A stretch of 64,000 nt of DNA from a virus. This document shows, piece by piece, positions 4,390 through 62,784 of the stretch. Each line of letters begins with the position of its first letter. Within the stretch, counting starts at the first letter, position 1. The notes beneath the pieces are model-generated. The model searched no databases, was not told the DNA's origin, and worked only from the letters and a program-made list of their open reading frames with translations. The position numbers were made by a program, and so were the translations under genes. The DNA lies in the IMG/VR virus record IMGVR_UViG_3300006339_000005, positions 62,587 to 126,586 of that record. One strand, given 5' to 3'.

Positions 4390-4471
4390 GATAGTATTTA
4401 TACCTCCCCTTTTCACTTCCCTTTTCAAGACTATTTTTGCGGTGTATTGAGACCCGTTTTTGGAGAATTGA

Positions 4472-4479
4472 TATAAATA
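4472..4479 (+). promoter_or_regulatory. Late promoter TATAAATA
   Basis: Exact T4 late consensus 40 nt upstream of the tail sheath gene. Confidence 0.75.
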
Positions 4480-7800: not shown

Positions 7801-8430
7801 ATGAGCATTTCGACATTATCAAAACTTACAGTACCTTTAGATTCAAGTGCATCAGCGTCGAATCAAGGGCTGTTAATGCCGAAACTCCAATATCGCTTTA
7901 GGGTGACATTGGAAAATTTCGGAGTATCAACGCCAACAACAGAGTTGACTAAACAGGTAGTTGATATAACAAGACCTAACGTGTCTTTTGAACAGATCAC
8001 CGTAGACGTGTATAACTCTAAAGTATTCCTAGCAGGAAAACATACTTGGGAGCCAATTACACTTAATTTACGTGAAGATGTTTCAAATAACGTACAAAAA
8101 TTAGTTGGTGAACAACTACAGAAACAATTTGATTTCTTTGAACAATCAAGTGCGGCTTCAGGAAGCGATTACAAATTCGTAACTAGAATTGAAATTTTAG
8201 ACGGTGGTAATGGTGCAAATGCGGCAGGTGTACTTGAAACATTCGAACTTTATGGTTGTTATTGTGAAAGTGCTAACTACAATACATTAGCATACGCAAC
8301 AAACGATCCAGTAACAGTTGCATTATCAATTAGATATGATAACGCAATACAAACACCACAAGGTACAGGTATTGGTACAGCAGTTGGTAGAGCAGTTAAT
8401 ACTGCTATTACTGGTGGTGGATCTTCATAA
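7801..8430 (+). CDS. Tail tube protein (gp19-like)
   Basis: PKLQYRFRV, RPNVSF, AGKHTWEPITL, YDNAIQ; directly after sheath. Confidence 0.9.
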   Translation: MSISTLSKLTVPLDSSASASNQGLLMPKLQYRFRVTLENFGVSTPTTELTKQVVDITRPNVSFEQITVDVYNSKVFLAGKHTWEPITLNLREDVSNNVQKLVGEQLQKQFDFFEQSSAASGSDYKFVTRIEILDGGNGANAAGVLETFELYGCYCESANYNTLAYATNDPVTVALSIRYDNAIQTPQGTGIGTAVGRAVNTAITGGGSS

Positions 8431-8460
8431 TATAATACCACAATATAATATTTCCGAGTA

Positions 8461-8494
8461 AAGGGGGGTCTTTTTAGGCCCCTTTTTTCTTTTT
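8461..8494 (+). terminator. Intrinsic terminator
   Basis: GGGGTC/GGCCCC stem followed by T-rich tract after tail tube gene. Confidence 0.7.
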
Positions 8495-8528
8495 AAATAC
8501 CCACTTATTTTCCTAGATAAATAATAGT

Positions 8529-9914
8529 ATGGCATTCAAATTTAAAGGATTTTTAGATAACTTATTAGGAGGGGCTACAAACCCTAAGGGTAACCTTGCT
8601 GACTGGGCCCACGCACGAGCATTATATACTAATGACGATCATCGTCTTGCTCCTAAACAGAAGTTTCTATACCATGTAACTTTTAATTTAAGTCCTGTAG
8701 CAGTTAAAGTAATTCCAGAAATACAAACAAGAGAAATTAATATGCTTGTTAAATCTGTAGACTTGCCCAAGTATAATATAACAACTAACTTAAAACACCA
8801 ATACAATCAAAAACGTAATTTACAAACAAGATTAGATTATGATCCTATTAATATAACTTTCCATGATGACAACTTTGGTCAAACAACTGGGATGTGGGAA
8901 GCATATTATAAGTATTATTTCAAAGACGGAAATTATGGAAGAACTGCTGGTGGGCATCCAGAAGGTCGTGCCGCCGCTTATAATAGAGGGAATACATATC
9001 TAGGTGAAACATTAAACGGTTTTCGTTATGGTATGGACAATGACAGTTACTATAACTTTTTTGAAAGTATTCAAATTTGGCAAATGTCTAGACGAAGATA
9101 TACTTGTTTTACATTAGTTAATCCATTGATTCAAAGTTGGCAACATGATACAATGGAAAACTCTGCAAGTGATCCTGTACAAAGTACAATGCAAGTTTTA
9201 TACGAAACTGTATGGTACGGTCGCGGAGCAGTTACAGATAATATAGCACCTAAGGGATTCGGATCAGAATCGGGACACTATGATACAACTCCAAGTCCAC
9301 TAACAATAGAAGGTGGAGGTACATCTAGTTTCTTTGGTCAAGGCGGTGTAGCAGAAGGTGGATTAGGTGTACTTGGAGACATTACAAGTGGAAATGCATT
9401 TAAAAGTCCAACTTCTTTTCTTGGTACTGTACTTAAAGGTGCAAACGTTTTTAAAAATGCAAAAAGTTTATCACGTGGTGGCTTACGTGAAGAAGGATTT
9501 AATATTTTAAAAGGAGCAATTGGTGGTGTTGGAAATGTTAATATTGTTGGTGGTGTTGCAAATACTCTTTTCCCGAAAAGTTCAGGAAGTTTTGGTGTTG
9601 CAAGTACTCTTACAAAAGCAATACCCGGAATAGCAATTGCTAGTAAATTATTAGGTTCGGGTCAAACTTCATCAATTGCTGAAATAGGGCTTAACTTGGT
9701 TAAAAATCCAGTCAATCTAAATGCGTTCACTTTAATTGCAAACCAGGCACAAGGTATGAAGAAACTATTGAACGACGGGGCATCGCCAATAATACAAAAT
9801 CTTACTGATGTTTTTAACGCTCAACCAGAAGCAGTTAAAAATACCGCAAATAACGAAACGCTTAACCAACTTGAAACGTTAAGCAGACAACATCCAAACC
9901 TAACGTTTACATAA
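8529..9914 (+). CDS. Tail-tube-like baseplate protein (gp48/gp54-like) with Gly-rich C-terminal half
   Basis: N-terminal tube-fold pattern (LVKSVDLPKY, YDPINITFHDDN, NPLIQSWQHD); position after gp19. Confidence 0.6.
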   Translation: MAFKFKGFLDNLLGGATNPKGNLADWAHARALYTNDDHRLAPKQKFLYHVTFNLSPVAVKVIPEIQTREINMLVKSVDLPKYNITTNLKHQYNQKRNLQTRLDYDPINITFHDDNFGQTTGMWEAYYKYYFKDGNYGRTAGGHPEGRAAAYNRGNTYLGETLNGFRYGMDNDSYYNFFESIQIWQMSRRRYTCFTLVNPLIQSWQHDTMENSASDPVQSTMQVLYETVWYGRGAVTDNIAPKGFGSESGHYDTTPSPLTIEGGGTSSFFGQGGVAEGGLGVLGDITSGNAFKSPTSFLGTVLKGANVFKNAKSLSRGGLREEGFNILKGAIGGVGNVNIVGGVANTLFPKSSGSFGVASTLTKAIPGIAIASKLLGSGQTSSIAEIGLNLVKNPVNLNAFTLIANQAQGMKKLLNDGASPIIQNLTDVFNAQPEAVKNTANNETLNQLETLSRQHPNLTFT

Positions 9915-13294: not shown

Positions 13295-14890
13295 ATGAGT
13301 ATAAAAAGTCTAGACGGTGTTCTTACTAAGAAGGCTCACACACGTGAGTCGTTTAATGAACAACAAATAAAAGATATTAAAAACTGTATGGATGAAGAAA
13401 CTGGGTTTCTTTATTTTTCAGAATACTTCTATAACATTCAACATCCTGTTGAAGGTAAATTATTATTTAAACCATACGACTATCAAATAAAACTCATGCA
13501 GGCATATCATGAGCATAGGTTTAATGTTAATATGCTACCACGTCAAAGTGGTAAAACAACTTGTGCTTCTGCATACCTTTTATGGTTTGCTATGTTTCAT
13601 CCTGATCAAACAATATTAATTGCCGCACATAAATTTGCTGGCGCTCAAGAAATTATGCAACGTGTTCGATATGGATATGAATTATGTCCTGATCATATAC
13701 GTGCAGGTGTAACAAACTATAATAAAGGTTCAATGGAATTTGAAAACGGTAGTAGATTAGTAAGTGCTACGACGACAGGAAATACAGGACGTGGTATGTC
13801 TATATCTTTATTATACTGTGATGAGTTTGCATTTGTTAATCCTAGTATTGCAGACGAGTTTTGGACTTCAATGTCACCTACATTAGCAACAGGTGGTCGT
13901 GCAATTATTACTTCAACACCTAATTCAGATGAAGATACATTTGCAATTATATGGAAAGAATCACAAAACAAATTTGATGAAAATGGACTTGAACAAGCAG
14001 TAGGTATTAATGGCTTTCATGGCTTTACAGCTAATTGGGACGAACATCCTGATAGAGATGAACAATGGGCTAAAGACGAAGTTGGTCGTATTGGTGAAGA
14101 AAGATTTAGACGTGAGTACGGTTGCGAATTTTTAGTTTATGATGAAACATTAATTAATGCAATTAAATTATCTACATTAGAAGGAATGAATCCTGTACTT
14201 AATATGGGTCAAACCCGTTGGTACGGTAAACCAACTGGAGATAAAACGTATGTAGTTTCTTTAGATCCTGCTATGGGTACTGGTGGCGATTTCGCGGCTA
14301 TTCAAGTAATTGAATTACCTACATATAATCAAATTGCAGAATGGCGACATAATACAACACCTATACCTACACAAATTAGAATTATGAAAGATATTTGTAA
14401 TTATATTAAAGAAACGTGTAATACTGATGGGCAAAATATTTACTGGAGTGTAGAAAACAACGCTATTGGTGAAGCCGCACTTATTGTTATTAATGACTTT
14501 GGTGAAGAGAATATACCAGGAATGTTTGTTAATGAACCTATTAAAAAAGGACATATACGTAAATTCCGCAAAGGATTTAATACTACTCATATTAGTAAAG
14601 TAAGTGCTTGTGCTAAACTAAAAACTATGATAGAAAACGATCGTATGAAGGTAAACAGCAAATTACTAATTACTGAGCTTAAAGGCTTTGTTGCGGCTGG
14701 TTCTAGTTATAAGGCAAAACCTGGTGAAACTGACGATTTAGTTATGTCCGCTTTATTAAGTATGCGTATGATTAGCGTGATGAAAATGTGGGATCCAAGA
14801 GTATACGATACATTTAATCAAGCTGATGAGGATCCTGATGAAGATTTTGTACCGCCTATGCCAATCATGGTTAGTACTCAATACAGATAA
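13295..14890 (+). CDS. Terminase large subunit (gp17-like)
   Basis: PRQSGKTT Walker A, LLYCDEFAF Walker B, ITSTPN, LDPAMG and DDLVM nuclease motifs. Confidence 0.97.
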   Translation: MSIKSLDGVLTKKAHTRESFNEQQIKDIKNCMDEETGFLYFSEYFYNIQHPVEGKLLFKPYDYQIKLMQAYHEHRFNVNMLPRQSGKTTCASAYLLWFAMFHPDQTILIAAHKFAGAQEIMQRVRYGYELCPDHIRAGVTNYNKGSMEFENGSRLVSATTTGNTGRGMSISLLYCDEFAFVNPSIADEFWTSMSPTLATGGRAIITSTPNSDEDTFAIIWKESQNKFDENGLEQAVGINGFHGFTANWDEHPDRDEQWAKDEVGRIGEERFRREYGCEFLVYDETLINAIKLSTLEGMNPVLNMGQTRWYGKPTGDKTYVVSLDPAMGTGGDFAAIQVIELPTYNQIAEWRHNTTPIPTQIRIMKDICNYIKETCNTDGQNIYWSVENNAIGEAALIVINDFGEENIPGMFVNEPIKKGHIRKFRKGFNTTHISKVSACAKLKTMIENDRMKVNSKLLITELKGFVAAGSSYKAKPGETDDLVMSALLSMRMISVMKMWDPRVYDTFNQADEDPDEDFVPPMPIMVSTQYR

Positions 14891-17467: not shown

Positions 17468-18424
17468 ATGGCTACATTAGCAGAAATTCGTGCAAAACTC
17501 AAAGAACAAGAGAATCGCTCTTCTGGCGGTTCAGGCGGTGACAACGCCATTTACCCATTTTGGAACTTAAAAGAAGGAGAATCGGCAACGATTCGTTTCT
17601 TACCAGACGGAGATGAAAACAACACTTTCTTCTGGCAGGAACGTTTGATGATCAAACTTCCTTTTGCAGGCGTTAAGAATGAATCCGATTCACGACCTAT
17701 ACAAGTACAAGTTCCATGTATGGAAATGTATGGCGAAACTTGTCCTGTATTGAGTGAAGTACGTGGTTGGTTCAAGGATAAAAATTTGGAAGACATGGGA
17801 CGTAAGTATTGGAAAAAACGTTCTTATGTATTTCAAGGTTTTGTAACTGACAATCCTCTTAAGGAGGACACAACACCAGAAAACCCAGTTCGTAGGTTTA
17901 TTATTGGTCCGCAAATTTTTCAAATCATAAAGGGTGCATTAATGGATCCTGACATGAATGAATTGCCAACAGACTATACCGCAGGTGTAGACTTTAGAAT
18001 TTCCAAAACTTCTAAAGGTGGCTATGCAGACTATTCAACTTCAACATGGTCACGTAAAGATCGACCATTAAATGAAGATGAGTATAAAGCAATCGAAGAT
18101 AATGGATTGTTTACTCTAAGCGACTACTTACCTAAGAAACCTGGCGACGTAGAAGTTGAAGCTATCAAAGAGATGTTTGGAAAATCTGTTGATGGTGAGG
18201 CTTACGACATGGACAAATTCGGAAGTTATTATCGTCCAGCCGGGATGTCAGCTCGTACAGGAGATCCTGTAAAAGCTGTAACTCCTACACCAAGTGTAAC
18301 ACCAACTCCAGAAGTTGCAAAAACAACTACTGAAGCTGTTACTACTGAAACAGCAGAAGCACCAAAACCTGGCGGCAAAGCGGAAGACATTCTTGCAATG
18401 ATTCGCAATCGCCAGAACGGCTAA
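17468..18424 (+). CDS. Single-stranded DNA-binding protein (gp32-like)
   Basis: ATIRFLPDG, CPV, KYWKKRSYVFQGFV, DFRISK, GGYADYSTS. Confidence 0.93.
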   Translation: MATLAEIRAKLKEQENRSSGGSGGDNAIYPFWNLKEGESATIRFLPDGDENNTFFWQERLMIKLPFAGVKNESDSRPIQVQVPCMEMYGETCPVLSEVRGWFKDKNLEDMGRKYWKKRSYVFQGFVTDNPLKEDTTPENPVRRFIIGPQIFQIIKGALMDPDMNELPTDYTAGVDFRISKTSKGGYADYSTSTWSRKDRPLNEDEYKAIEDNGLFTLSDYLPKKPGDVEVEAIKEMFGKSVDGEAYDMDKFGSYYRPAGMSARTGDPVKAVTPTPSVTPTPEVAKTTTEAVTTETAEAPKPGGKAEDILAMIRNRQNG

Positions 18425-18434
18425 ACAGTAACAC

Positions 18435-18460
18435 ATAAGGGGGGCTTCGGTCCCCCTTAT
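18435..18460 (+). terminator. 11-bp cUUCGg hairpin (terminator or mRNA stability element)
   Basis: ATAAGGGGGGC-TTCG-GTCCCCCTTAT; weak U-tract. Confidence 0.7.
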
Positions 18461-18482
18461 TAACTTGGATTAAGGAGATCTA

Positions 18483-19535
18483 ATGACAAATAAAGTATTC
18501 GACGTTTCTAAGTTTCGTAAAAACTTAACAAAATCAATTACAGGTATGAGCTCTGGGTTTCATGATCCAACCGATTGGATCAGCACAGGAAACTTTGCAC
18601 TCAATTATCTTATTAGTGGTGACTTCCATAAAGGTGTACCTCTAGGTAAAGTAACAGTCTTTGCTGGCGAACCAGCTTCAGGTAAATCATATTTTTGTTC
18701 AGCTAACATTGTAAAAGCGGCACAAGAACAAAATATCTTTGTTATTCTAATAGATTCAGAAAATGCATTAGATGAAAATTGGCTACAAGCATTAGGTGTA
18801 GATACTGACGAAAAGAAATTACTCAAATTAAGTATGAGTATGGTTGATGATGTTGCAAAAACAGTATCAACATTTATGGCAGACTACAGAGAAACACCAG
18901 AAGAAGAACGCCCAAAAGTATTATTTGTAATGGATAGTTTGGGTATGTTGCTAACACCTACTGACGTTGATCAATTTACAAAGGGTGATATGAAAGGTGA
19001 TATGGGTCGTAAACCTAAAGCCTTAACAGCTCTTGTAAGAAATTGTGTTAATATGTTTGGTAGTCATAATGTTGGACTAGTAGCAACCAATCACACTTAT
19101 GCATCACAAGATATGTTTAACCCAGATGATAAAATTAGTGGTGGACAAGGGTTTATCTACGCAAGTTCAATTGTTGTAGCAATGAAAAAATTAAAATTAA
19201 AAGAAGATGAAGACGGTAAAAAGGTTACCGATGTACGTGGTATTAGAGCCGCTTGTAAGGTAATGAAAACACGTTACGCAAAACCTTTTGAATCTGTACA
19301 AGTTAAAATTCCATATGAAACTGGCATGGATCCATACTCAGGATTAGTTGACTTATTTGAAAAGAAAGGCCTACTAAAACAACAAGGCAATCGACTTAAA
19401 TACGTTGATTCTTCAAAAAGAGAACATCTAGAATATCGAAAAGACTGGAGTGGTGAGAAGTTAGAGATAATTATGCATGACTTCGATAACCTCGAACAGA
19501 AAGATGTTGTTGGAGATGACGATACTGAGGAGTAA
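18483..19535 (+). CDS. uvsX: RecA/UvsX recombinase
   Basis: GEPASGKS P-loop, IDSENA, DSLG, DMGRKPK, ISGGQG. Confidence 0.95.
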   Translation: MTNKVFDVSKFRKNLTKSITGMSSGFHDPTDWISTGNFALNYLISGDFHKGVPLGKVTVFAGEPASGKSYFCSANIVKAAQEQNIFVILIDSENALDENWLQALGVDTDEKKLLKLSMSMVDDVAKTVSTFMADYRETPEEERPKVLFVMDSLGMLLTPTDVDQFTKGDMKGDMGRKPKALTALVRNCVNMFGSHNVGLVATNHTYASQDMFNPDDKISGGQGFIYASSIVVAMKKLKLKEDEDGKKVTDVRGIRAACKVMKTRYAKPFESVQVKIPYETGMDPYSGLVDLFEKKGLLKQQGNRLKYVDSSKREHLEYRKDWSGEKLEIIMHDFDNLEQKDVVGDDDTEE

Positions 19536-19542
19536 ACAACAT

Positions 19543-19776
19543 ATGGAAAGTGGATCACAGATTAGCGAAATCTGGACTTGCTTCAAAGAATACATAGACA
19601 AAAAACATATTGAAACAGTTGCAGAACGTTTTGTTGATTTATGTGCAGACTATGGCACACCAGATGAAGCATTTAGAGATGCATTAGGCATGGATAATGA
19701 ACTAGATAAGGCAATAACTTATTACTTAGATGAAGAAATGGAAGAAGATGATTGGGTTGAAGAAGAGGATTATTAA
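19543..19776 (+). CDS. Small acidic hypothetical protein
   Basis: Start refined to ATG 19543 behind GAGGAG; between uvsX and uvsY. Confidence 0.7.
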   Translation: MESGSQISEIWTCFKEYIDKKHIETVAERFVDLCADYGTPDEAFRDALGMDNELDKAITYYLDEEMEEDDWVEEEDY

Positions 19777-20231
19777 TGGGATGGTATTCTGATATTGCTA
19801 AAGACGTTAGCAAAATACCCGCGGCAATTGGTTATTTTGAACATGAATTAGACGAAGCAAAAGCCGAGGTTAGGATTAGAGGAAATGTAGAAAGGTCTGC
19901 GGCAGAGATGCCGGGGATAGTTGAACATCGATTTAATCAGCTTCAAGAACTAGAGGCAATACTAGAATACTTAAATATCGAATTACGAAGACTACGAAGT
20001 ACATTTTTTAGAAAATATTTGGAAAATTATCAACGAGCATTAAGCAGTCGTGATGTAGAAAAATATGTTGATGGCGAAGCAGATGTTGTTGATTATGAAA
20101 AAATTATAAATGAATTTGCATTAATGCGGAACAAATGGTTAGGAGTCACAAAGGCACTCGATCAAAAGCAATGGCAACTAACTAATATTGTAAAGCTTCG
20201 TGTAGCCGGAATGGAAGATGCTAGACTTTAG
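19776..20231 (+). CDS. uvsY: Recombination mediator UvsY-like
   Basis: FRKYLENYQRALSSRDVEKYVDGE..KALDQKQWQLTNIVKLRVAG. Confidence 0.88.
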   Translation: MGWYSDIAKDVSKIPAAIGYFEHELDEAKAEVRIRGNVERSAAEMPGIVEHRFNQLQELEAILEYLNIELRRLRSTFFRKYLENYQRALSSRDVEKYVDGEADVVDYEKIINEFALMRNKWLGVTKALDQKQWQLTNIVKLRVAGMEDARL

Positions 20232-51507: not shown

Positions 51508-52119
51508 TTAATTATCGCTTGACTTATAGTCTTTATCGACCACACACATAACCATATGAATTCTATCTGCTTCACTGCCGTTAAATTGTGAATGATAAAA
51601 ACGTGTATCAGTAAACCAGCAAGTTCCCGTTTTCATATGATGTACTTCGTCTTCGATAATCATTTTTGATCCAATTAAGGTTCTAACAGGAACGTGTATC
51701 CTTGGCTCTGGATCACGATGCCAGGATAAAGCCCTTCGTGGCATAGAACGTACTAAACGTACCCGTCCTATTTTCCAGTCCTCAGAAATTGTTTCGTATA
51801 CTTGTTTAAAATATGTATGAGCAAACTCGGGAATAAATTTTGTGTACTCGCTTTCGCATATATCTTGTAAGCGACTTACTTCTTTGCCTTCAGCATCAAA
51901 CGTATCATAATGCCCGCCTTCGCCTCCATGATACTCGTGTTCTTCATTTTCTTTTTCTGTTAAGCAAATCTGTGGAGAGTAAATATCATTCTTGCCAAAC
52001 TTGTTTACATTTCCTCCGGACATCTTATCGCCCCAAGGACAAATCTGCAATACATCATGTAGCCCTTCTTCTAGCTTTTCGTTATCAAACTCATATGTTA
52101 ATTTTTTAAAGTACTTCAT
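51508..52119 (-). CDS. Aspartyl/asparaginyl beta-hydroxylase-like 2OG oxygenase/cupin
   Basis: SWHRD..RIHVP..DTRFYHSQFNGSEADRIHMV; start refined to 52119 behind GGAGG. Confidence 0.75.
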   Translation of the reverse strand: MKYFKKLTYEFDNEKLEEGLHDVLQICPWGDKMSGGNVNKFGKNDIYSPQICLTEKENEEHEYHGGEGGHYDTFDAEGKEVSRLQDICESEYTKFIPEFAHTYFKQVYETISEDWKIGRVRLVRSMPRRALSWHRDPEPRIHVPVRTLIGSKMIIEDEVHHMKTGTCWFTDTRFYHSQFNGSEADRIHMVMCVVDKDYKSSDN

Positions 52120-52387
52120 TACCAACACCCTCCTCGTATTGCACATAGGAATAACATCTTTGCTTTAACATGAAATGGAGCCACTTCAGCACAACCCATG
52201 TTTATATTATAGAACCATACTCCACCTATAGTTGCACTTACAATAAAGAATCCTATAGTTACTTTCCAAAATGTTGTCATTGTATTAAACTCAGTATAAC
52301 GAAAGTACTAATAATAAACACTATGTATCCAACTGTTACTAGTATTCTTTCTTTAGTTTTTGACTTAAAAAGATAATGATGTTCCAT

Positions 52388-53518
52388 CTATCTATTCATT
52401 ATAAACATACTTCCAAACTTTGTATTAACCGCGTCACTTAGATTAACGTCCTCTTGTTTATAATACCCTTCTTTGTTAAGTTTATCTTGTAAAAATAATT
52501 CAACCATTGTTAACATTCCTGATGCAGTAGTTAATTCTATTGCTGTATAATATCTATCATTATATGTTTCTGGATAAAATACTTTCTTGTATATACGTTC
52601 CTTATGCTTACCATTTATCCTACCACCAGCTGTAATAAACAAAATTACAACATCACGTCTTGTAGTTGACACACCTCTTTTAATAATTTCAATTAACTCT
52701 TTATTAGGAATTCTTAAATCATTTATTAAGAAATCTATAAGGTTATGATGTCCTTTACGGCGTATAGTTTTATAATTTATATTTGAATGCGTAAAGCGTT
52801 CATCATCTAAGTCAGCTATAGTTCTTGCAAACGTACCTAAGCCTCCACTCGTATTAAATGCTTCATACGTATCACCGCCAATCATTAATGTTTCATATCC
52901 TGTAAGAGTAGGCACTTCATAATATTTGCCATCTCTAATAATTGCACAATCGCCACAATACTCATTTACTAAACCATCAGCACTCCATGACAAATGATAC
53001 TTTAACTTATTAGTTGCATCTTGTGATAATGCTCCAACACGTATCTTAATATGATCAACTGGATCCATATCATGCATTAAGTTGTTTGCAATAACTGTAC
53101 TCATACCAGGAGCAAGTCCACAATGCGGCATTGTAAATTGGATGCCTGTTCTAGTTTCAGAAACATACTTACGATCTCTTATCCAATTATCTAATTCAGC
53201 ATCTTCTGAGAAATCAAAGTACGGAATATTACATTCCATACAAGCATTATGAATAACCATATTTTCTGTATATGGTAGAGCATTAATTATAAGTGTAAAG
53301 TCACAAACGAAATCCTGTAGTATTGAGTTGTTTGCTCCAGGATGTCTAGTATCTATTTGCTTGTAATCTTCTTCAGCAAATGCTCCCGAACGAGTAGCAT
53401 TATATGGCGTCATATCCGCTACTGTAACGCTGTAGTTTGTACGATCTTTTAAAAGATGATATACTGCACTACCTATTGCTCCTGCTCCGAATATTCCTAT
53501 TTTAACTTGATCAGACAT
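52388..53518 (-). CDS. Saccharopine dehydrogenase / lysine 6-dehydrogenase family protein
   Basis: GAGAIG Rossmann, NALPY, CGLAPG, RVGAL, WSADGLVNEY, EAFNTSGG, YKTIR. Confidence 0.9.
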   Translation of the reverse strand: MSDQVKIGIFGAGAIGSAVYHLLKDRTNYSVTVADMTPYNATRSGAFAEEDYKQIDTRHPGANNSILQDFVCDFTLIINALPYTENMVIHNACMECNIPYFDFSEDAELDNWIRDRKYVSETRTGIQFTMPHCGLAPGMSTVIANNLMHDMDPVDHIKIRVGALSQDATNKLKYHLSWSADGLVNEYCGDCAIIRDGKYYEVPTLTGYETLMIGGDTYEAFNTSGGLGTFARTIADLDDERFTHSNINYKTIRRKGHHNLIDFLINDLRIPNKELIEIIKRGVSTTRRDVVILFITAGGRINGKHKERIYKKVFYPETYNDRYYTAIELTTASGMLTMVELFLQDKLNKEGYYKQEDVNLSDAVNTKFGSMFIMNR

Positions 53519-53529
53519 AATGCTTGTAC

Positions 53530-54381
53530 TTATCTAACTTTGGATAAGAACTCCTTCACTGTATTAACAACAACAAATCTTAGATTTTTAAATTCCATTA
53601 GCCGCCTAATTACATAAGGCATCCAGTCTGCTCCATATGGTGCATACGTTCTAACATTATAACCTTCACCTATTAAGCGTTTAGCTAAATCACGCCTAAT
53701 GCCAAACAACATTTCAAAATAAAACTTCCTTTTACAACTGTATTGTTTTGCTAATTCTTTAATTCTATGTATTAAATATTCATCATGAGTTGCTAGTGAT
53801 ATTAATTCTTGCTTATAACTCTTATCATAAAAGTATCCGCTTTTAAAAAGCTCTTCTACTAATTCTAAATATGAGCTTCGTACCTTATGTTTATTATGGA
53901 TATCTCCTTTGTATGCACCTTTACAAATTCTTACTCTACGTTTACTTTCAATTACATCTGCTAAATCAGTATATGAACGTTCCATATTAGCTTGTAATAC
54001 AATACCGATATCCTTAAAGCATCGTGAAAATTTTAATGTATCATCAATTGACTCTGCTTTCTCCATATCAAATTTAATTTTAATAAACGGTATATCTTTT
54101 ACTACATTAACAATTCGTTCTACAGGTTCTTTCCAATCACTAGGTAGCTGACCGAATTGACTTAACTTAATAGATACTTCGTATTCTCTATGTGGAAGGT
54201 CAAATAACTTACTAATTAAATCTAAATATTCTTTTAAGTTTGCTTTAATTTCACAAGGTGCATAAGCACTTTCGCCTACATAATTAATAGTCACTAGATC
54301 ATATTGTCTGATATTGTATAACATTGATGCAATATCATCACCAGCAATAAATCTCTTAGCTAACGGAAATAATAATTTCAT
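53530..54381 (-). CDS. Monofunctional proline dehydrogenase
   Basis: RFIAG, SIKLSQFG, DME, GIVLQA, VRICKGAY, ATHD, EMLFGIR, YAPYG..YVIRRL. Confidence 0.92.
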   Translation of the reverse strand: MKLLFPLAKRFIAGDDIASMLYNIRQYDLVTINYVGESAYAPCEIKANLKEYLDLISKLFDLPHREYEVSIKLSQFGQLPSDWKEPVERIVNVVKDIPFIKIKFDMEKAESIDDTLKFSRCFKDIGIVLQANMERSYTDLADVIESKRRVRICKGAYKGDIHNKHKVRSSYLELVEELFKSGYFYDKSYKQELISLATHDEYLIHRIKELAKQYSCKRKFYFEMLFGIRRDLAKRLIGEGYNVRTYAPYGADWMPYVIRRLMEFKNLRFVVVNTVKEFLSKVR

Positions 54382-55739
54382 AACGGGCTTCTTATAAACC
54401 TAGCTTGGAAAAATCGTAATTCTTTTGGCTCGTATGTCATTGTTAAGCCTTTTATTTTATCTGCATTTTTATATAACTGACTAATAGAATTAGCGGTATA
54501 TTCTAAATGCTCTGACGTATATACCCTGCGTGGAATTGTTAAACGTATTAATTCCATATCATCGTAAGGTTCGTCACCGTGTTGTCCTGATACAATTCCA
54601 CGCTCCATTGTTCTAACACCAGACTCTTCATATATTGAAGCGGCTACTGTTTGTGCTGGATATCTGTCTTGTGGAATATGTGGAACAAATCTTTTTGCAT
54701 CAATAAAAACTGCATGGCCTCCAATTGGTACTACAATAGGTACCCCTCCTTCTTGTAACTGTTCTCCAAAATGTCTTACTTGTCCTACTCTATGTGCAAT
54801 ATGATCATCGTCAACGCTTTCATAAAGACCTCTTGCTAACGCTTCCATATCACGTCCTGACAGCCCACCGTAGGTATGAAGTCCTTCATATATTACTACC
54901 ATGCCTCGCATTCTTTCAAATAGTTCTTCGTCATTAAGGGCAATGAAGCCGCCCATATTTACAAGTCCATCCTTTTTAGCTGAGCAAGTTATACCATCTG
55001 CATACGCACAAATTTGTAAAACAATTTCTGCAACTGATTCATGAAAACCGTTTGCAATGACTGGGCCATCTAACTGTTGAATAAAATAAGCATTCTCTAC
55101 TAATCGTGTTGCATCTATCCACAATGGTATATTGTGTTCTTTACAAATTGAACTTACCTCTGACAGATTTTGCATACTAAATGGTTCACCACCAGCCATA
55201 TTAACACAAGCCTCCATGCTAACAAATGGCACGTGATTATTATTAATGCAATCTTTCAATTTATCTAAATCAATATTTCCTTTATATGGAAAATCATTTT
55301 CAGGTTGATGTGCTTCATCTACTGATACGTCTTCCCAAATTCCTTTTGCTATTTCTTGATGGGCTCGTCTAGTAGTAAAATAAAGATTGTTAGGAATTAC
55401 ATCACCTTCTTTAATCATTAACTGAGATTGAATATGTTCTGCTCCACGCCCTTGATGTGTAGGAACAACATACTTAAATCCGTATATGTCTTGAATTGCT
55501 TTTTCTAAATTATAAAAGTTTCTTGACCCAGCGTATGCTTCATCACCTAACATCATGCCTGCCCATTGATTATCGGACATGGCTGTCGTGCCTGAGTCTG
55601 TTAATAAATCAATATAAACATCTTCTGACCTTAAAAGAAACGTATTATAATGAGCTTCTTTCATTGCTACTAATCTGTCTTTATATGGAATAAGCCTAAT
55701 AGGCTCAACTGCTTTTATTTTATACGGTGGTAAATGCAT
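54378..55739 (-). CDS. tpl: Tyrosine phenol-lyase (PLP beta-eliminating lyase)
   Basis: IDLLTDSGT, GDEAYAGS, PTHQGRGAE, SAKKD PLP-Lys; TPL-type YFTT, MERG, LRFF. Confidence 0.88.
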   Translation of the reverse strand: MHLPPYKIKAVEPIRLIPYKDRLVAMKEAHYNTFLLRSEDVYIDLLTDSGTTAMSDNQWAGMMLGDEAYAGSRNFYNLEKAIQDIYGFKYVVPTHQGRGAEHIQSQLMIKEGDVIPNNLYFTTRRAHQEIAKGIWEDVSVDEAHQPENDFPYKGNIDLDKLKDCINNNHVPFVSMEACVNMAGGEPFSMQNLSEVSSICKEHNIPLWIDATRLVENAYFIQQLDGPVIANGFHESVAEIVLQICAYADGITCSAKKDGLVNMGGFIALNDEELFERMRGMVVIYEGLHTYGGLSGRDMEALARGLYESVDDDHIAHRVGQVRHFGEQLQEGGVPIVVPIGGHAVFIDAKRFVPHIPQDRYPAQTVAASIYEESGVRTMERGIVSGQHGDEPYDDMELIRLTIPRRVYTSEHLEYTANSISQLYKNADKIKGLTMTYEPKELRFFQARFIRSPL

Positions 55740-56211
55740 ACTTGGTATCCTTATAGAAAGATAATTCGTTATCCATTATGCCGAACTTTAATTGCATTTC
55801 GTTTAAAGAACTATCCCAATCTTCTTTCGTCCAGTTTACCTCGCCTATACGCTTAATATTTCTCGTACGCCCGTAGGTAAAGCCACGTTCAAAAATGTTT
55901 ATTTGTTCTTTACTAAATTTATTTTTTTTAGGATATAGGAAGCGTGAAATAAATTTGAATAATTTAACTTCCCACGTTTTGGTTCGATCATCATTGCCCA
56001 TTGTAAAGCCAATTACAAAAGCCTCTGAGTCATTTGATTGATCACATTCTAGTAAGACATGAATAGCATCATGATCTCGTAATGCCGCTGATCCATGAAG
56101 ACAAAAAGGCGACATTGGGTTCTCCACAAACCATATTATAAAAGATATCTCAGTCGGTTCGACTGTTTCATACCCACGTATGAACTCCTCGTATACTTCC
56201 CGAAAAGTCAT
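55720..56211 (-). CDS. Coq4-like metal-binding protein
   Basis: HDAIH-x11-E matches the Coq4 HDxxH-x11-E motif. Confidence 0.65.
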   Translation of the reverse strand: MTFREVYEEFIRGYETVEPTEISFIIWFVENPMSPFCLHGSAALRDHDAIHVLLECDQSNDSEAFVIGFTMGNDDRTKTWEVKLFKFISRFLYPKKNKFSKEQINIFERGFTYGRTRNIKRIGEVNWTKEDWDSSLNEMQLKFGIMDNELSFYKDTKYAFTTV

Positions 56212-56223
56212 TACCTTGCCCCC

Positions 56224-56502
56224 TTAAAACACAAACATTTTAAATATTCCTGATAGCGTAATTGCTACTACAATTATATTTAACACTAGTAAGTTAATAC
56301 TTTGTCGTAAGTAAGCATTAATTGTATGTAGTAACGCACCGGATAAAGTGAATAGGAAAACTAGAGAAACAGGAGCATCGTCGCCGTGCCATGCTAGTAT
56401 AACATACACACTTATAAAGCACAATGCTCCTGTAGTTTCAACAACTAACCTAAACCTGTTCTGTTCCCAATCTTCTATTAACCACGACTTAAAACTTTTC
56501 AA
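56224..56502 (-). CDS. Small integral membrane protein
   Basis: About three hydrophobic helices. Confidence 0.65.
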   Translation of the reverse strand: MKSFKSWLIEDWEQNRFRLVVETTGALCFISVYVILAWHGDDAPVSLVFLFTLSGALLHTINAYLRQSINLLVLNIIVVAITLSGIFKMFVF

Positions 56503-56891
56503 ATTCCAGGTCCTTCTTCCCCAGGTGTAAAGAGTTCAGCTTTATTACCACCTACTATACAAGCCTTATCTTGACCTTTAAACATAAAAGAAATTGCCCA
56601 TTGGTCGTTATCTGGATTCATCCACATCTCTACAGAAACTAGCTCTTTGTAAAAATGATTATGAACTAATCCTTTCATAGCTCTATGCATACGATAATCC
56701 TTTTTAGCCATAGCTAATATCTTTTCCTTTGTATCACAATACGTCATTATTACATTTAGGTTCTTCAGCTCTGGACCTTTTACATCTGGTAATGTACCGT
56801 TTGACAGAGCATCATTCATTAAGAATAATGTTGTTAAACAAAGAATAGCAAAATATAAAGCTAGTTTTATCTGTACTGATAGGTGTCTCAT
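56499..56891 (-). CDS. Secreted/membrane-anchored hypothetical protein
   Basis: N-terminal signal-like helix; ATGA coupling. Confidence 0.6.
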   Translation of the reverse strand: MRHLSVQIKLALYFAILCLTTLFLMNDALSNGTLPDVKGPELKNLNVIMTYCDTKEKILAMAKKDYRMHRAMKGLVHNHFYKELVSVEMWMNPDNDQWAISFMFKGQDKACIVGGNKAELFTPGEEGPGI

Positions 56892-57604
56892 CTACCCTCC
56901 TTCATCAAAGTATCCGTTCCCGGACTAATTGCCATTGAACACGGCATCCAAACATTCTCTTTAGCATGGTAATGAACATTAGATCCACAGTCTAAATAAT
57001 CTGCGGCCGCTAGTGCTTTTTGCGGAGTATCATATGTATGATCAAATATATTATCAGAGTCTTTTACACCGTCAGGAACTGCTCGTTTTAATTCAAGATG
57101 TTGACTATGTGACCCTTCATCATGTCGTTTAAAAGGTTTGTTGTGACTAGAATTTGGATCATCTCTAGGATCTTTCTGAGGTGCCCACTGGTCTTCGTTC
57201 TGCTTTCCTAAAAATGGTGGAGCATTCTCTTCTGCTTCTATTAAATGCTTGTTGTTTGCTATAAATTGATTAATATTTTTATAAAAATCATCTTTTCCAT
57301 TATAGCCAACCCACCTAGTAATTTCTCTATCCGTCCATATCATGAACGTAGGTGTGCCTGCAATTCTACCTACACGCTTTGATTTGAATGCTTCAATATA
57401 CCAATCAGGCACAGGACCATCCATATCAATAATATGTAACGGTAATACTTTGCCTGCTTCAGACTCAGCATACGTTGGTTTAACTTCTTCTAAAAATCGC
57501 ACACAAAAATTACAATTTGGATTGCTGAACATTAATAGTTCAATTGCGTGACTTGGTGTAACAAATAGCACGATGAATGCTAGAGCTAATAATAGCTTTT
57601 TCAT
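56888..57604 (-). CDS. Exported thioredoxin-fold protein (SoxS-like) with C-terminal Cys/His domain
   Basis: Signal peptide, CNFC, GTPTF cis-Pro loop; C-terminal DC..H..WMPC. Confidence 0.75.
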   Translation of the reverse strand: MKKLLLALAFIVLFVTPSHAIELLMFSNPNCNFCVRFLEEVKPTYAESEAGKVLPLHIIDMDGPVPDWYIEAFKSKRVGRIAGTPTFMIWTDREITRWVGYNGKDDFYKNINQFIANNKHLIEAEENAPPFLGKQNEDQWAPQKDPRDDPNSSHNKPFKRHDEGSHSQHLELKRAVPDGVKDSDNIFDHTYDTPQKALAAADYLDCGSNVHYHAKENVWMPCSMAISPGTDTLMKEGR

Positions 57605-57627
57605 ACCCTCTCTCCTTTATGTGAAAT

Positions 57628-59151
57628 TTACTCTTCTATCTGAGCTTTTTGTAATGTACCACTATAATCAACAAAGACAGATTTCCACTCAGTACAATTA
57701 TCAATCATACTGTGTCCTGCTTCACGATGCCCATTACCGGTTCCTTTAGTACCACCAAAGGGTAACTGTATTTCTGCACCAATAGTTGACGAATTAATGT
57801 AAGTAATGCCTGTGTCTATTTCATTAAACGCTTTAAAGGCAAAATTTACATTCGCCGTATAAACTGCGGCCGATAATCCATACTTAGAATTATTAACCAT
57901 GTCTATAACTTCATCAGTATCACTAAACGATACTAATGCTACTACAGGACCAAACACTTCTTCCTGTGCAATCATATCGTCTTGCTTTACGTTTGTAATA
58001 ACAGTTGGCATATAAAACCAACCGTATGTTTCTTTAAACGTGCCATACTTCTCTGGAACATCATTAGTAGGCTGTTGGTTAATAGCACCTCCACACAATA
58101 CAGTATTAGTAACCTTAGCTTCTGTTACCATCATGTGTATTTTATTTAACGCTTTTTCATTAATAACAGGCCCCATATCAACCTTATCGTCTGAACCGTC
58201 ACCTACAAATAATGCTTCGGCTCGCTTAACAAGTTTATCTGTAAACTCGTCTTTAATGCTATCTTGAACAAATACTCTTGAACACGCTGTACAACGTTGT
58301 CCTGTTGTGCCAAATGCACCCCACACAACACCGTCAACAGCAAGATCCATATCAGCATCTTCCATAACAACTATTGCATTCTTGCCACCCATCTCTAATG
58401 AATAAGGCTTCATTTGATCTGCACATCTAGTTGCTACTTTCCAACCTGTAACTGTTGAGCCAGTAAATGATATAAACTTAACTGTAGTGTTTGCTACTAA
58501 TGGTTGTCCCGCCGATTCTCCATAACCTGTAACTACATTAAACACTCCTGGTGGTAATCCTGCTTCTTCAAATACCATTGCTAGTCTACATACACTCAGT
58601 GGTGTATCTTCCGCTGGCTTAATAACCATTGTGTTACCGGCTACAAGGGCAGGGAAGGCCTTCCATGACGGAATAGCTATTGGAAAATTCCAAGGAGTGA
58701 TTGCTCCGATAACGCCTATTGGCATTCGCATGGACATACAGAACTTATCATTCAGTTCTGATGGAACTGTCATTCCTCCCAATCTCCGACCCTCACCTGC
58801 CGCATAGTAGCCCATATCAATTGCTTCTTGAACATCGCCACGTGTTTCAGATAATGGCTTACCCATTTCCTGAGTCATTATCTTTGCTATATCTTCTTTA
58901 TCTCGTATTAAAATTTCGGACGCTTTAAATAATATCTCACCGCGTTTTGGTGCTGGAACCTTACGCCACGTTTTAAATGCTTCGTGTGCCACAGCTACAG
59001 CTTTATCGATATCTTCTTTATTACTGTCTTGGACAGTAGCTATAACTTGTTTACAATGAGCAGGGTTCGTGACTTCAATCTTTTTACCTGAAGCTGAGTC
59101 TACCCATTGGCCACCTATATAATTTTTATAGTCAGTTTTCATTAGAATCAT
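57628..59151 (-). CDS. NAD(P)+-dependent aldehyde dehydrogenase
   Basis: PWNFP, KPAEDTP, FTGST, LEMGGKN, GQRCTA, EEVFGP, PFGG. Confidence 0.96.
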
Positions 59152-59190: not shown

Positions 59191-60774
<1,584 letters not shown>

Positions 60775-60785
<11 letters not shown>

Positions 60786-60901
60786 TTAATTTTCCTCTTT
60801 CTTAATACCCAATAGTTTTTTAATCAATTCAAGCATATATTTTATCTTACTCATAGTACAGGCACAACAAGATTCTTTAACGGTAGTTGTCATTTAATTT
60901 T
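60775..60901. repeat. 19-bp direct repeat pair
   Basis: GTAGTTGTCATTTAATTTT at 60775-60793 and 60883-60901. Confidence 0.85.
60786..60893 (-). CDS. 35-aa mini-ORF between beta and alpha subunit genes
   Basis: MTTTVKESCCACTMSKIKYMLELIKKLLGIKKEEN; ATGA overlap upstream, TAAATG junction downstream. Confidence 0.5.
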   Translation of the reverse strand: MTTTVKESCCACTMSKIKYMLELIKKLLGIKKEEN

Positions 60902-61744
60902 TTCCCCTTGTTCTCGCAAATAATCTTTTGCTCTGTCAGATATTTCTTCTTCAAAACCGTAACGGTCTTTCTCTACATCAAATGCATCTTTCATAACTTC
61001 TGGAGTTGGTATTGAATACTCAATGTTGCATGATGTATATGCTTGAATGTATGTAGACCCAAACTCTCTTGCAACTAGTATTGCTCGTCTAACAGAGCGA
61101 GCCACCCTTGCAGGATTTGTAGGTGCTATACGACATACATAATCAAGTTTTGCAACTCTTGCCAATCCCAACATATCCATCTTCTCATCTACTTTACCAC
61201 GGGGTGACATCTTTGCAACTAGACCCTTTTGAGTCATTCCACTTTCTTGTCCACCTGTGTTACCGTAGATTTCATTGTCCAACATAATGGTTGTAAACTT
61301 CTCATGCCTAAACCAACTATGCATGAGTCCTTGAAATCCTATATCAACTAGTCCACCATCACCACACATTACTATTACATCTTTATCTTGTTCTGGAAAT
61401 CGTAATTCTAATCCTCGTTTCAATCCAGATGCAACAGCATTTGTATCGCCATAGTTTCCATAAATGAATGGAACATTACCTTGACTTATTGCTAACCTTC
61501 CACAACCAGCCGTACCACAAATAATGGTATGCTCTGGTTTTGGTAATGCAAGAAATACAATTCGTATAAAAAGAGTCATAGCACATCCGGCACACATTGG
61601 ATGTTCTTCAATTAACTCTTTGAACTTGCCCATGTCCTTAACTTTTTTAGGCTTGCCATACTGACCATGTTTAACAAGGTCTTGGTACTCAACAGGCAAG
61701 TGTTCTAAATAGCCAGGGCTAGGCCTTACAGTTGCTAATGACAT
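60890..61744 (-). CDS. 2-oxoacid:ferredoxin oxidoreductase beta subunit (ForB-like)
   Basis: CAGC, GTAGC, ThDP motif GDG..DN, GNTGGQESG. Confidence 0.93.
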   Translation of the reverse strand: MSLATVRPSPGYLEHLPVEYQDLVKHGQYGKPKKVKDMGKFKELIEEHPMCAGCAMTLFIRIVFLALPKPEHTIICGTAGCGRLAISQGNVPFIYGNYGDTNAVASGLKRGLELRFPEQDKDVIVMCGDGGLVDIGFQGLMHSWFRHEKFTTIMLDNEIYGNTGGQESGMTQKGLVAKMSPRGKVDEKMDMLGLARVAKLDYVCRIAPTNPARVARSVRRAILVAREFGSTYIQAYTSCNIEYSIPTPEVMKDAFDVEKDRYGFEEEISDRAKDYLREQGEKIK

Positions 61745-61745
61745 A

Positions 61746-62717
61746 TTACACAGATTCCAATACTTTAGCGTTACGTTGAGCTTTGGCTTCTTGGTCAGCT
61801 TTTAGTTTAGCTTTGAATTCAAGTTTACGTTCTTTCTCTTCAGCTTTTACTCTGTCTATAACAGCTTGTCCTTCATCAGTAATGTAACAGCGATTAACAA
61901 AACGTCCACCGATACTTTCTGAGTCTTTCATTTCATCAAGCCCTTCCATACTCTGCTTACCAATTTCTAGTATACACGGAGTATACAATTGGACAAACGT
62001 TGGGCCTACTTCACGAGCAATATAAATGCCATGACGGATAGCTTCTGCAACTCTATTAGGTTTACTAACAGTTAGGATTGTTGAATAATGACAGCCAGCC
62101 TCTCGTGCTATTTCCACTAGGCGGACTTTTTCAAACTGCTTCCCCTTGGGAGCCATTTTTGCAACAAAGCCTTTTTGCATAAGTCCTGATTCCTGTCCAC
62201 CCGTATTAGCGTACAGCTCGTTATCAAAACATATAGTTAAAAAGCGTTCTTGTCTAAACCATGACTGCATAGTCATATCTAAACCAATATCAACAGTAGC
62301 ACCATCACCAGCTAAGACTATTACATCTTTAATCTTATTAGGAAATCGTTTTGCTAAAGCTCTTTGAAGTCCACTAGCAATAGCATTTTGATTACCGAAC
62401 AAGCTATGGATATTTTGAACTGCTACGTGGGGCCATACTAATGATGTACAGCCTGTACTTCCAACGAATACCGTATCTTCTGGGTTTGGAATACTTGCTA
62501 GGATATAACGAAACGCTATGCTCTCTGGACAGCCTGCACATAGTGAATGCTGTTCAATTAATTCTTTACTGCTCCCAATATCTTTCCAGCCTCGATCCGT
62601 ATTGCCATATGTAGAGTTCTCAACTAGTTCTTGATACTCTGGGGGCATAATATCTGCTAGTTCTTCACATAGGGCGATCTTGCTAGATTTATTTTTGCTT
62701 GGCGTATGCTGTGCCAT
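61746..62717 (-). CDS. Second 2-oxoacid:ferredoxin oxidoreductase beta subunit (PorB-like)
   Basis: CAGC, GSTGC, GDGAT..DN, ANTGGQESG; start refined to 62717 behind AGGAG. Confidence 0.93.
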   Translation of the reverse strand: MAQHTPSKNKSSKIALCEELADIMPPEYQELVENSTYGNTDRGWKDIGSSKELIEQHSLCAGCPESIAFRYILASIPNPEDTVFVGSTGCTSLVWPHVAVQNIHSLFGNQNAIASGLQRALAKRFPNKIKDVIVLAGDGATVDIGLDMTMQSWFRQERFLTICFDNELYANTGGQESGLMQKGFVAKMAPKGKQFEKVRLVEIAREAGCHYSTILTVSKPNRVAEAIRHGIYIAREVGPTFVQLYTPCILEIGKQSMEGLDEMKDSESIGGRFVNRCYITDEGQAVIDRVKAEEKERKLEFKAKLKADQEAKAQRNAKVLESV

Positions 62718-62738
62718 GTTAGTTCTCCTAGAAACATT

Positions 62739-62784
62739 TAAGGGGCACAAGGCCCCCTAAACTTAACAAAGCATTGTTAAAGTT
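62739..62784. promoter_or_regulatory. Two adjacent inverted repeats upstream of the beta-subunit gene
   Basis: GC-rich stem at 62739-62759 and TTAACAA-N4-TTGTTAA at 62763-62780. Confidence 0.55.

Follow-up and report, generated by a model that had tools for sequence, protein, structure and literature searches.

Gene content and organization of the island

We analysed a stretch of 64,000 nucleotides of viral DNA (hereafter the window), which spans positions 62,587 to 126,586 of the IMG/VR virus record IMGVR_UViG_3300006339_000005, and concentrated on a run of eight genes on its minus strand, from position 59151 down to 52388. In the order of transcription, they encode an aldehyde dehydrogenase (ALDH), a thioredoxin-fold (Trx-fold) protein, two small proteins (p130 and p92), a truncated Coq4-like protein (mini-Coq4), a tyrosine phenol-lyase (TPL), a proline dehydrogenase (ProDH), and an oxidoreductase of the saccharopine dehydrogenase (SDH) family. 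An initial annotation made from the sequence alone had listed these eight open reading frames as co-oriented and mostly overlapping, and all eight were recovered; it had also interpreted them as one operon in which amino-acid catabolism converges on semialdehydes and 2-oxoacids. The island is a new instance of phage auxiliary metabolic genes (AMGs), an already-known class. The coordinates of the run, its neighbours, and other features of the window are given in Table 1.

Table 1. Features of the 64-kb window discussed in the text. Enzyme and protein names are predictions.
Feature	Position	Strand	Length (aa)	Basis or remark
ALDH, NAD(P)-dependent	57628..59151	-	507	Pfam Aldedh PF00171, E 5e-168, 560 bits
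Trx-fold protein, secreted	56888..57604	-	238	Pfam Thioredoxin_2 E 1.5e-4; DUF3721 E 0.012
p130, predicted secreted or membrane-anchored	56499..56891	-	130	one N-terminal hydrophobic segment
p92, integral membrane protein (hydropathy)	56224..56502	-	92	about three hydrophobic segments
mini-Coq4, truncated Coq4-like putative metalloprotein	55720..56211	-	163	HDxxH(x)11E motif and predicted fold
TPL	54378..55739	-	453	Pfam Beta_elim_lyase PF01212, E 7e-69
ProDH, monofunctional, FAD-dependent, PutA-type barrel	53530..54381	-	283	Pfam Pro_dh PF01619, E 6e-21
SDH-like oxidoreductase	52388..53518	-	376	Pfam Sacchrp_dh_NADP and Sacchrp_dh_C
p53, Cys-rich small protein	52119..52280	-	53	50-77% identical in L009, L015, L016, L017, L062, L065
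Cupin-type Asp/Asn beta-hydroxylase-like 2-oxoglutarate oxygenase	51508..52119	-		Pfam Asp_Arg_Hydrox E 1e-8
YfhL-type 2[4Fe-4S] ferredoxin	59191..59529	-		directly upstream of ALDH; NCBIfam NF033683 100.7 bits (cut-off 86)
2-oxoacid:ferredoxin oxidoreductase (OFOR) alpha; beta2; beta1	59517-60785; 60890-61744; 61746-62750	-		Pfam POR_N, PFOR_II, TPP_enzyme_C
Late-promoter word TATAAATA, two copies	4395-4402; 4472-4479	-; +		both in the divergent intergenic region before the tail-sheath gene
Large terminase (TerL)	13295-14890	+		nearest relatives Pseudomonas PA5oct-like jumbo phages, 51% identity

The junctions within the run are tight. ATGA-type overlaps of 4 nt join the Trx-fold gene to p130, p130 to p92, and TPL to ProDH, mini-Coq4 (p163) overlaps TPL by 20 nt, and the remaining gaps measure 11-23 nt. 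A scan for intrinsic terminators gave no convincing one within the run; terminator-like sites (nine, compared to 7.3 in shuffled sequences) were within the shuffle expectation, and sigma-70 promoter-like sites (forty-three) were fewer than the shuffle mean of 58.5. The genes share one orientation, overlap or lie close together, and have no convincing terminator among them, which gives the run the sequence features of an operon; it is probably a single co-transcribed unit. The window has fewer copies of the T4-type late-promoter word TATAAATA than expected (two in 64 kb, compared to twelve). None of them falls in the island, and the position of both copies by the tail-sheath gene would fit non-late expression of the island.

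Pseudogenization, which the initial annotation had named as an outcome that would undo its interpretation, can be set aside. Pairwise dN/dS was between 0.04 and 0.27 for all nine island genes tested against homologues in related phage contigs, and the catalytic motifs are kept, so the enzymes are intact and under purifying selection. GC content at third codon positions (GC3) is 0.19-0.34 across the island genes, and therefore no gene resembles a very recent arrival.

Identity of the enzymes

The best solved relatives of the lyase are TPLs (E 2e-161, 530-541 bits) and not tryptophanases (1e-123, 346-416 bits), and alignment to the Citrobacter freundii enzyme (2ez1) shows identical residues at Y71, R100, F123, T124, D214, R217, K256, K257, M379, R381, R404, F448, and F449 in C. 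freundii numbering. Three of these (T124, R381, and F448) are what we take to be the phenol-pocket residues that separate TPL from tryptophanase. The initial annotation had called this gene a TPL, and these residues, together with the scores over tryptophanases, bear that out. Compared to the TPLs of C. freundii and Erwinia herbicola (EC 4.1.99.2; 2ez1, 1c7g), the window protein aligns over its full length (E ~1e-158), with the pyridoxal-phosphate lysine and all the substrate-contact residues checked identical. It differs from them in being phage-encoded, in having its nearest cellular relatives (~67 per cent identity) among CPR/Parcubacteria-type sequences, and in scoring below the cut-off of the TPL equivalog TIGR02618 (643.3 bits, cut-off 720.7). 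It passes the broader tryptophanase/TPL subfamily model NF009709 (591 bits, cut-off 285). Every test applied except the strict equivalog cut-off thus identifies the predicted protein as a TPL. A peptide-pattern search of IMG/VR for close TPL relatives found none, and the relatives described below came from the protein database and contig look-ups. Among cultured phages, the only TPL matches were ~40 per cent identical and came from two records of Campylobacter phages and from a faecal contig.

For ProDH, the Pfam score is 75.6 bits (cut-off 27), and the protein aligns over its full length with the solved Deinococcus and Thermus ProDHs 4h6q and 2ekg at E 1e-26. The motifs siKlS, DME, vlQ, KGAY, THD, and YGxDWxxYxxRRxxE are kept, and the alignment of FAD- and proline-binding motifs to 4h6q agrees with the name first given to this gene. 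Against the equivalog of characterized ProDHs (NF045947, Thermus) the score falls below the cut-off (133 bits, cut-off 500), and the specificity may be of the hydroxyproline or pipecolate type. The nearest cellular sequences (Pyrinomonadaceae-type) are at most 39 per cent identical, and an identical ProDH sequence is recorded on twenty-six contigs; a contig of 237 kb has this identical ProDH. As for other viruses, ProDH has been noted in prasinoviruses of algae (OtV5 paper). An apparent cultured-phage precedent in Microcystis phage MaAM05 was discounted since the match lies in bacterial-looking DNA; the region annotated with a ‘proline dehydrogenase’ in that record (L072, MW495066.1, 97-110 kb) also has fliM, pomA, ompA, murJ, bioD, and pcnB. 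We likewise discounted Staphylococcus, Listeria, and Acinetobacter ‘phage’ matches to ALDH and ProDH, which were at most 38 per cent identical and came from fragmentary records.

The ALDH keeps its catalytic Asn (in PWNFP), Glu (LEMGGK), and Cys (GQRCTA), and among solved structures its best match is a generic ALDH of Thermus. Its best NCBIfam model is that for 2-oxoglutarate-semialdehyde dehydrogenase (KGSADH), with 502 bits compared to a cut-off of 770. It also falls below the cut-offs of the models for pyrroline-5-carboxylate dehydrogenase (P5CDH, ALDH4; NF002852, 405 of 648 bits, and TIGR01237, 371 of 660 bits) and for piperideine-6-carboxylate/aminoadipate-semialdehyde dehydrogenase (P6CDH, ALDH7; NF050084, 375 of 730 bits). 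In our tree, the ALDHs of phages make up a single clade (SH-aLRT 100), whose sister group, with weak support (87), consists of genes from Obscuribacterales and from metagenome-assembled genomes (MAGs) of Proteobacteria; the nearest cellular identity is ~54 per cent. The sister-group genes lie between a class-III aminotransferase (GABA/acetylornithine-type, an omega-aminotransferase) and an acyl-CoA dehydrogenase. Because its cellular kin stand beside omega-aminotransferases, the phage enzyme fits a semialdehyde dehydrogenase, and it is probably an acid-semialdehyde dehydrogenase. The initial annotation went further and had one ALDH complete both the proline and the lysine routes. This stays a guess, since the P5CDH, P6CDH, and KGSADH cut-offs are all missed, but the convergence of the two routes on one ALDH would be biochemically coherent and draws some support from the context of the ALDH kin and from the lysine-dehydrogenase-like last gene of the run. 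In a WOR-3 MAG (L023, 8004-11381), a cellular ALDH 50 per cent identical to that of the phage is followed by a JAB-domain gene and then by a beta-eliminating lyase 34 per cent identical to the phage TPL, an arrangement that may be coincidence.

A seventeen-sequence profile of the SDH-like protein matched 3abi at E 2e-24, AASS at 8e-8, and carboxyspermidine dehydrogenase (CASDH) at 1.5e-7, the last over the N-terminal Rossmann part only. The AF2 model (pLDDT 85) likewise had 3abi as its top Foldseek match (E 5e-22, TM 0.75-0.81, 21-22 per cent identity), and 3abi is confirmed as an L-lysine 6-dehydrogenase in PMC10413350. This Pyrococcus horikoshii enzyme (PH1688) is the best match in both sequence and structure, and the phage protein shares with it a two-domain fold and an NAD-type Rossmann motif. 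The phage protein differs in its low identity and in its membership of a large family so far known solely from phage contigs and marine metagenomes. Profile and predicted structure thus place the protein closest to L-lysine 6-dehydrogenase and not to carboxy(nor)spermidine dehydrogenase. The initial label of ‘saccharopine/lysine dehydrogenase-like’ therefore stands for the family and the nearest relative and is weakened as to activity by the 21-22 per cent identity. Cultured-phage records gave no credible homologue of this gene.

The main alternative for this enzyme is that it is biosynthetic, forming a polyamine (of the carboxyspermidine or homospermidine type) or an opine-like product, so that the right end of the run would not be catabolic. 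Polyamine genes are known phage AMGs, and the fold is common to carboxyspermidine dehydrogenase, homospermidine synthase, and saccharopine reductase. The initial annotation had itself raised carboxynorspermidine synthase as a specificity that would refute it. We rejected that identity: the protein scores 19 bits on the carboxynorspermidine synthase model (NF043000, cut-off 800), the CASDH profile alignment is confined to the N-terminus, and the sequence lacks the His-Glu-Glu tripeptide that is central to catalysis in carboxyspermidine dehydrogenases (PMC10413350). A Pfam scan of the island found no partner decarboxylase. In addition, the GxGxxG motif is followed by an Asp (D35) that is invariant in the family, which suggests a preference for NAD and not NADPH and, as we read it, the catabolic direction. 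A biosynthetic role is accordingly very unlikely in our estimate.

Secreted and membrane proteins and mini-Coq4

The four genes between ALDH and TPL encode proteins of another kind. The initial annotation named the first a thioredoxin. The Trx fold and a CNFC motif agree with that name, but the protein is predicted to be secreted and to carry a C-terminal domain, and is not a plain thioredoxin: it has a signal-peptide-like N-terminus (hydrophobic residues 3-27) and a Cys/His-rich, weakly DUF3721-like C-terminal domain. Its Thioredoxin_2 score is under the cut-off, while that of the L009 homologue is above it. Both cysteines of the CxxC (C31 and C34) and the motif CGSNxHxHAKExVWMPCSM are kept in four phages. 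The hydrophobic segments of p130 and p92 match the two membrane or secreted reading frames first described. We found no match for p130 in protein-family searches (Pfam, NCBIfam); homologues with 37-61 per cent identity occur in several phage groups. For p92, identity is ~70 per cent in phages that bear the module and 47-52 per cent in others.

The fourth protein, mini-Coq4, belongs to an unannotated family of proteins of ~160-230 aa with 316 representatives (50 per cent clustering, E up to 0.001). In a fifty-three-sequence family alignment (A4), H47, H51, and E63 are invariant, E30 is invariant or nearly so, and D48 is present in at least 90 per cent. These residues form the motif HDxxH(x)11E, defined as the metal motif of Coq4, the C1 oxidative decarboxylase of ubiquinone synthesis (PMC10680789). 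The AF2 model (pLDDT 94) had clear Foldseek matches only to the bacterial Coq4 homologues 6e12 (Alr8543) and 3msq, whose chains took the first three places, with probabilities of 0.95 and 0.89 and VIA Z scores of 8.8 and 7.6; the next chain scored 3.5. A neighbouring cluster in the ESM Atlas also bears the name Coq4. Set against Alr8543, the phage protein has the metal motif and the surrounding helical fold in common and differs in its length, aligning solely to residues 81-216 of the 6e12 and 3msq chains and lacking ~80 residues, the N-terminal third of Coq4. Its match to Pfam Coq4 (PF05019) is not significant (12.1 bits, cut-off 22.9, E 0.12). The ‘Coq4-like’ of the initial annotation is hence upheld by motif and fold and has to be qualified for the truncation and the Pfam score. 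Of two cellular homologues of mini-Coq4 whose gene neighbourhoods were inspected, one adjoins the 5-oxoprolinase subunits PxpB and PxpC (L046-L049), too few cases to build on.

These proteins raise the question of whether the core is a membrane or envelope redox module and not a catabolic one. In it, ProDH would mainly bring electrons into the quinone pool, mini-Coq4 would act on or bind a prenylated quinone or phenol, and the CxxC protein with its metal-binding tail, p130, and p92 would be periplasmic, together energizing the membrane or remodelling envelope redox during infection. ProDH enzymes (PutA/ProDH) are quinone-linked, half of the eight core genes code for secreted, membrane, or Coq4-like proteins, and mini-Coq4 also sits beside OFOR alpha in two other contigs (L068 and L069). 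Furthermore, the substrates of Coq4 are ubiquinone precursors with a prenylated ring, and a hydrophobic tunnel lies next to the metal site of 6e12 (PMC10680789). The absence of the N-terminal third of Coq4 speaks against such a module, as does the fact that it leaves the ALDH and the SDH-like enzyme unexplained, and we regard it as improbable.

Distribution among related phages and assembly of the island

Contigs of six related phages (L009, L015, L016, L017, L062, and L065) carry the genes for the ferredoxin, ALDH, Trx-fold protein, p130, p92, mini-Coq4, ProDH, SDH-like protein, and p53 in the same order, with protein identities to the window of 45-91 per cent. They include a 351-kb Tara scaffold (L009), a 125-kb contig (L065), and a contig that starts inside the run (L017). 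The core module is inherited within one phage subclade. Identity to the window is mosaic in L062, being 95 per cent for the cupin-type protein, 98 per cent for p100, 90 per cent for ProDH, and 91 per cent for mini-Coq4, compared to 74 per cent for the SDH-like protein, 76 per cent for the Trx-fold protein, and 61 per cent for p130. This suggests recombination between phages within the island. L065 (NCBI PAHU01000021.1) is filed under a Euryarchaeota MAG and has the whole module along with phage replication genes, which makes it probably a jumbo-phage contig that was mis-binned. Another of its genes (18338-19879) codes for a tryptophan-halogenase-family protein.

TPL is missing from the island site in all six of these contigs, including L062 despite its closely similar ProDH, and in each of them mini-Coq4 abuts ProDH. 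TPL is a precise late insertion between these two genes, found among module carriers in this phage lineage only. In our tree, all phage TPLs group together (SH-aLRT 100), the window copy being sister to the others, and the nearest cellular group consists of the CPR/Parcubacteria-type sequences. The phage relatives, 77-80 per cent identical, sit at a different site from the island, either between ThyX and class II ribonucleotide reductase (RNR) (L008) or directly upstream of RNR (L002 and L007). In related phages (L002, L007, and L012-L014), ThyX, class II RNR, and a PDDEXK nuclease stand in line with one or two GAPDH genes. We also considered whether TPL had been transferred horizontally in recent times and dropped the idea, as its composition gives no signal (GC3 0.21, like its neighbours).

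The other enzymes are separable as well. An SDH-like gene (50 per cent identity) occurs without ProDH or ALDH in L012-L014, and a ProDH (47 per cent identity) lies alone among replication genes in L050. The ALDH is found in other phage groups with a YfhL ferredoxin: in L057-L060, an ALDH with 67 per cent identity (~8001-9473) adjoins the ferredoxin (9487-9807) with no ProDH, SDH-like, or Trx gene beside the pair, and in L070 an ALDH 59 per cent identical to ours lies 4 kb from a complete OFOR set (alpha-beta1-beta2-ferredoxin). For the ALDH of L061, we found no accompanying ferredoxin match. Co-occurrence across related phages, which the initial annotation had proposed as a check on a single operon or pathway, therefore turned out against it. 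As to its proposed check for single versus multiple donors, the nearest cellular relatives are different for each gene. Nearest cellular identities are ~67 per cent for TPL, ~54 per cent for ALDH, and at most 39 per cent for ProDH, and the SDH-like protein is ~21 per cent identical to any characterized enzyme. Because the nearest relatives and identities differ from gene to gene, several donors and acquisition times are indicated and not the capture of one operon.

This pattern could mean that the genes are functionally unrelated morons in a hypervariable accessory region with no metabolic hand-over between them, the ALDH working with the ferredoxin and OFOR (for example to produce or use up a 2-oxoacid) instead of with ProDH or the SDH-like enzyme. 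The ALDH-ferredoxin pairs and the OFOR set near an ALDH point this way, as do the solitary ProDH and SDH-like genes, the TPLs by ThyX and RNR, the choice of KGSADH as best ALDH model, and the mosaic identities of L062. On the other hand, a seven-gene core keeps its order and its translational-coupling overlaps in the six related contigs down to 45-70 per cent amino-acid identity, and ProDH with a semialdehyde dehydrogenase makes up the canonical two-step proline route. On balance we find a set of unrelated morons somewhat unlikely.

Islands of AMGs occur in hypervariable regions of marine T4-like phages. The island studied here resembles them in its clustered, co-oriented, host-derived metabolic genes, in a content that varies among close relatives, and in a composition ameliorated to that of the phage. 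It is unlike them in its set of genes (TPL, ProDH, lysine-dehydrogenase-like, ALDH, and mini-Coq4), which was not found described in the literature searched. Within the open literature that we searched, no paper treated a TPL, ProDH, or saccharopine-dehydrogenase-family gene as a phage auxiliary gene, and cultured-phage records gave no credible homologues of the TPL, ProDH, ALDH, or SDH-like enzymes. Related TPL and SDH-like proteins are present in Tara, vent-plume, and other marine assemblies.

Possible role in amino-acid metabolism

We put it at about even that the island is a genuine AMG island for amino-acid harvest, assembled stepwise from genes of different origin, as distinct from a proven single pathway. 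In such an island, ProDH would oxidize free proline to pyrroline-5-carboxylate/glutamate semialdehyde and pass the electrons to the membrane quinone pool, and the ALDH would yield NAD(P)H by oxidizing glutamate semialdehyde, or a related acid semialdehyde of the C4-C6 range, to its acid. The NAD-type lysine-6-dehydrogenase-like enzyme would act on lysine or a similar diamino acid, deaminating its terminal amine to give another semialdehyde, and TPL would cleave tyrosine to pyruvate, ammonia, and phenol. Together, these reactions would draw on the amino acids of the host to provide phage replication with glutamate, 2-oxoacids, ammonia, and reducing power. Each gene could help individually, and the clustering would then reflect joint expression within an accessory region and would not make up an obligatory pathway.

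Coupling of ProDH to the ALDH is plausible; the remaining hand-overs we infer. Compared to the ProDH and P5CDH of Thermus and Deinococcus (fused as PutA in proteobacteria), the island likewise has a monofunctional ProDH with the signature motifs in one unit with an ALDH-superfamily enzyme. It differs in that the ALDH is not of the ALDH4/P5CDH subfamily, that five genes separate the two, and that another phage lineage carries ProDH without ALDH.

Several findings weigh against amino-acid harvest. The ALDH is not recognizable as a P5CDH or an aminoadipate-semialdehyde dehydrogenase, and across phages its most persistent neighbour is the ferredoxin/OFOR set and not ProDH. The SDH-like enzyme has its low identity to the one solved lysine 6-dehydrogenase, four core proteins (the secreted Trx-fold protein, p130, p92, and mini-Coq4) are not accounted for by catabolism, and TPL, ProDH, and the SDH-like gene are each found alone in other phages. 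The initial annotation also had pyruvate from TPL feeding the adjacent OFOR. Only the window phage has both together, and the other OFOR-bearing phages have no TPL, ProDH, or SDH-like gene within the flanks of up to 10 kb examined. Overall, the phage origin and the enzyme families given in the initial annotation hold and the genes are intact, while the single pathway, the one ALDH for both routes, and the feeding of OFOR are unsupported or weakened.

A bolder arrangement, which we think has little chance of being correct, is a self-contained phage ‘fuel line’ into host electron transport. Here ProDH would feed the quinone pool from proline, mini-Coq4, as a new truncated metalloenzyme of the Coq4 type, would modify or handle a quinone or phenolic ring (TPL could supply phenol from tyrosine), and 2-oxoacids would pass to the phage ferredoxin via the OFOR of the phage. 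If this were true, the virus would re-plumb host respiration with its own input enzymes, beyond topping up single steps.

Phage AMGs shape carbon and nitrogen processing in infected marine cells, and those known from marine phages centre on photosynthesis, the pentose-phosphate pathway, and nucleotide, phosphate, and sulfur metabolism. The island adds a widespread family of uncultured marine jumbo phages with intact genes for the oxidation of proline, of a lysine-dehydrogenase-like amine, and of semialdehydes, with TPL added in one lineage. If the enzymes are active, glutamate, pyruvate, ammonia, reductant, and phenol would arise from free amino acids in infected cells, and viruses would drive nitrogen and carbon remineralization by a new route. 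For biochemistry, the island would then also be a natural source of four enzyme families. A negative lesson is equally useful: the adjacency of genes here is insufficient by itself to define a pathway.

Neighbouring genes and source phage

Downstream of the SDH-like gene, the run extends further than first annotated, through p53 to the cupin-type gene at its end. The latter is the most conserved gene of the island, with a dN/dS of 0.04. Upstream of ALDH are the ferredoxin and the OFOR genes. Among module carriers, OFOR alpha and beta2 adjoin the module solely in the window phage; they are missing beside the module in L009, L015, and L065, which have only beta1 and the ferredoxin. In L009, a NifU-like gene (4761-5108) lies between OFOR beta1 and the ferredoxin, and there is no OFOR alpha within 10 kb. 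The alpha-beta1-beta2-ferredoxin set of L070 also occurs in L067.

The window makes up the final 64 kb of a record of 126.6 kb with a CheckV completeness of 33 per cent, which implies a full genome of ~350-400 kb. The contig is a fragment of an uncultured marine jumbo phage (myovirus). Its phage nature, already recognized in the initial annotation, is borne out by the plus-strand part of the window, where we found a tail sheath, tail tube, large terminase, gp32-like single-stranded DNA-binding protein, UvsX-like recombinase, and helicases. After the PA5oct-like phages, the next-nearest TerL relatives are those of Sinorhizobium phage Phosso, a Vibrio phage, and Erwinia jumbo phages; cyanophages are not among them. 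A cyanophage-type host was set aside in view of TerL and because no Photo_RC turned up in the two partial records scanned. Both the coding strand and the GC skew switch at ~50 kb and stay switched up to the contig end, and the island sits in that minus-strand block.

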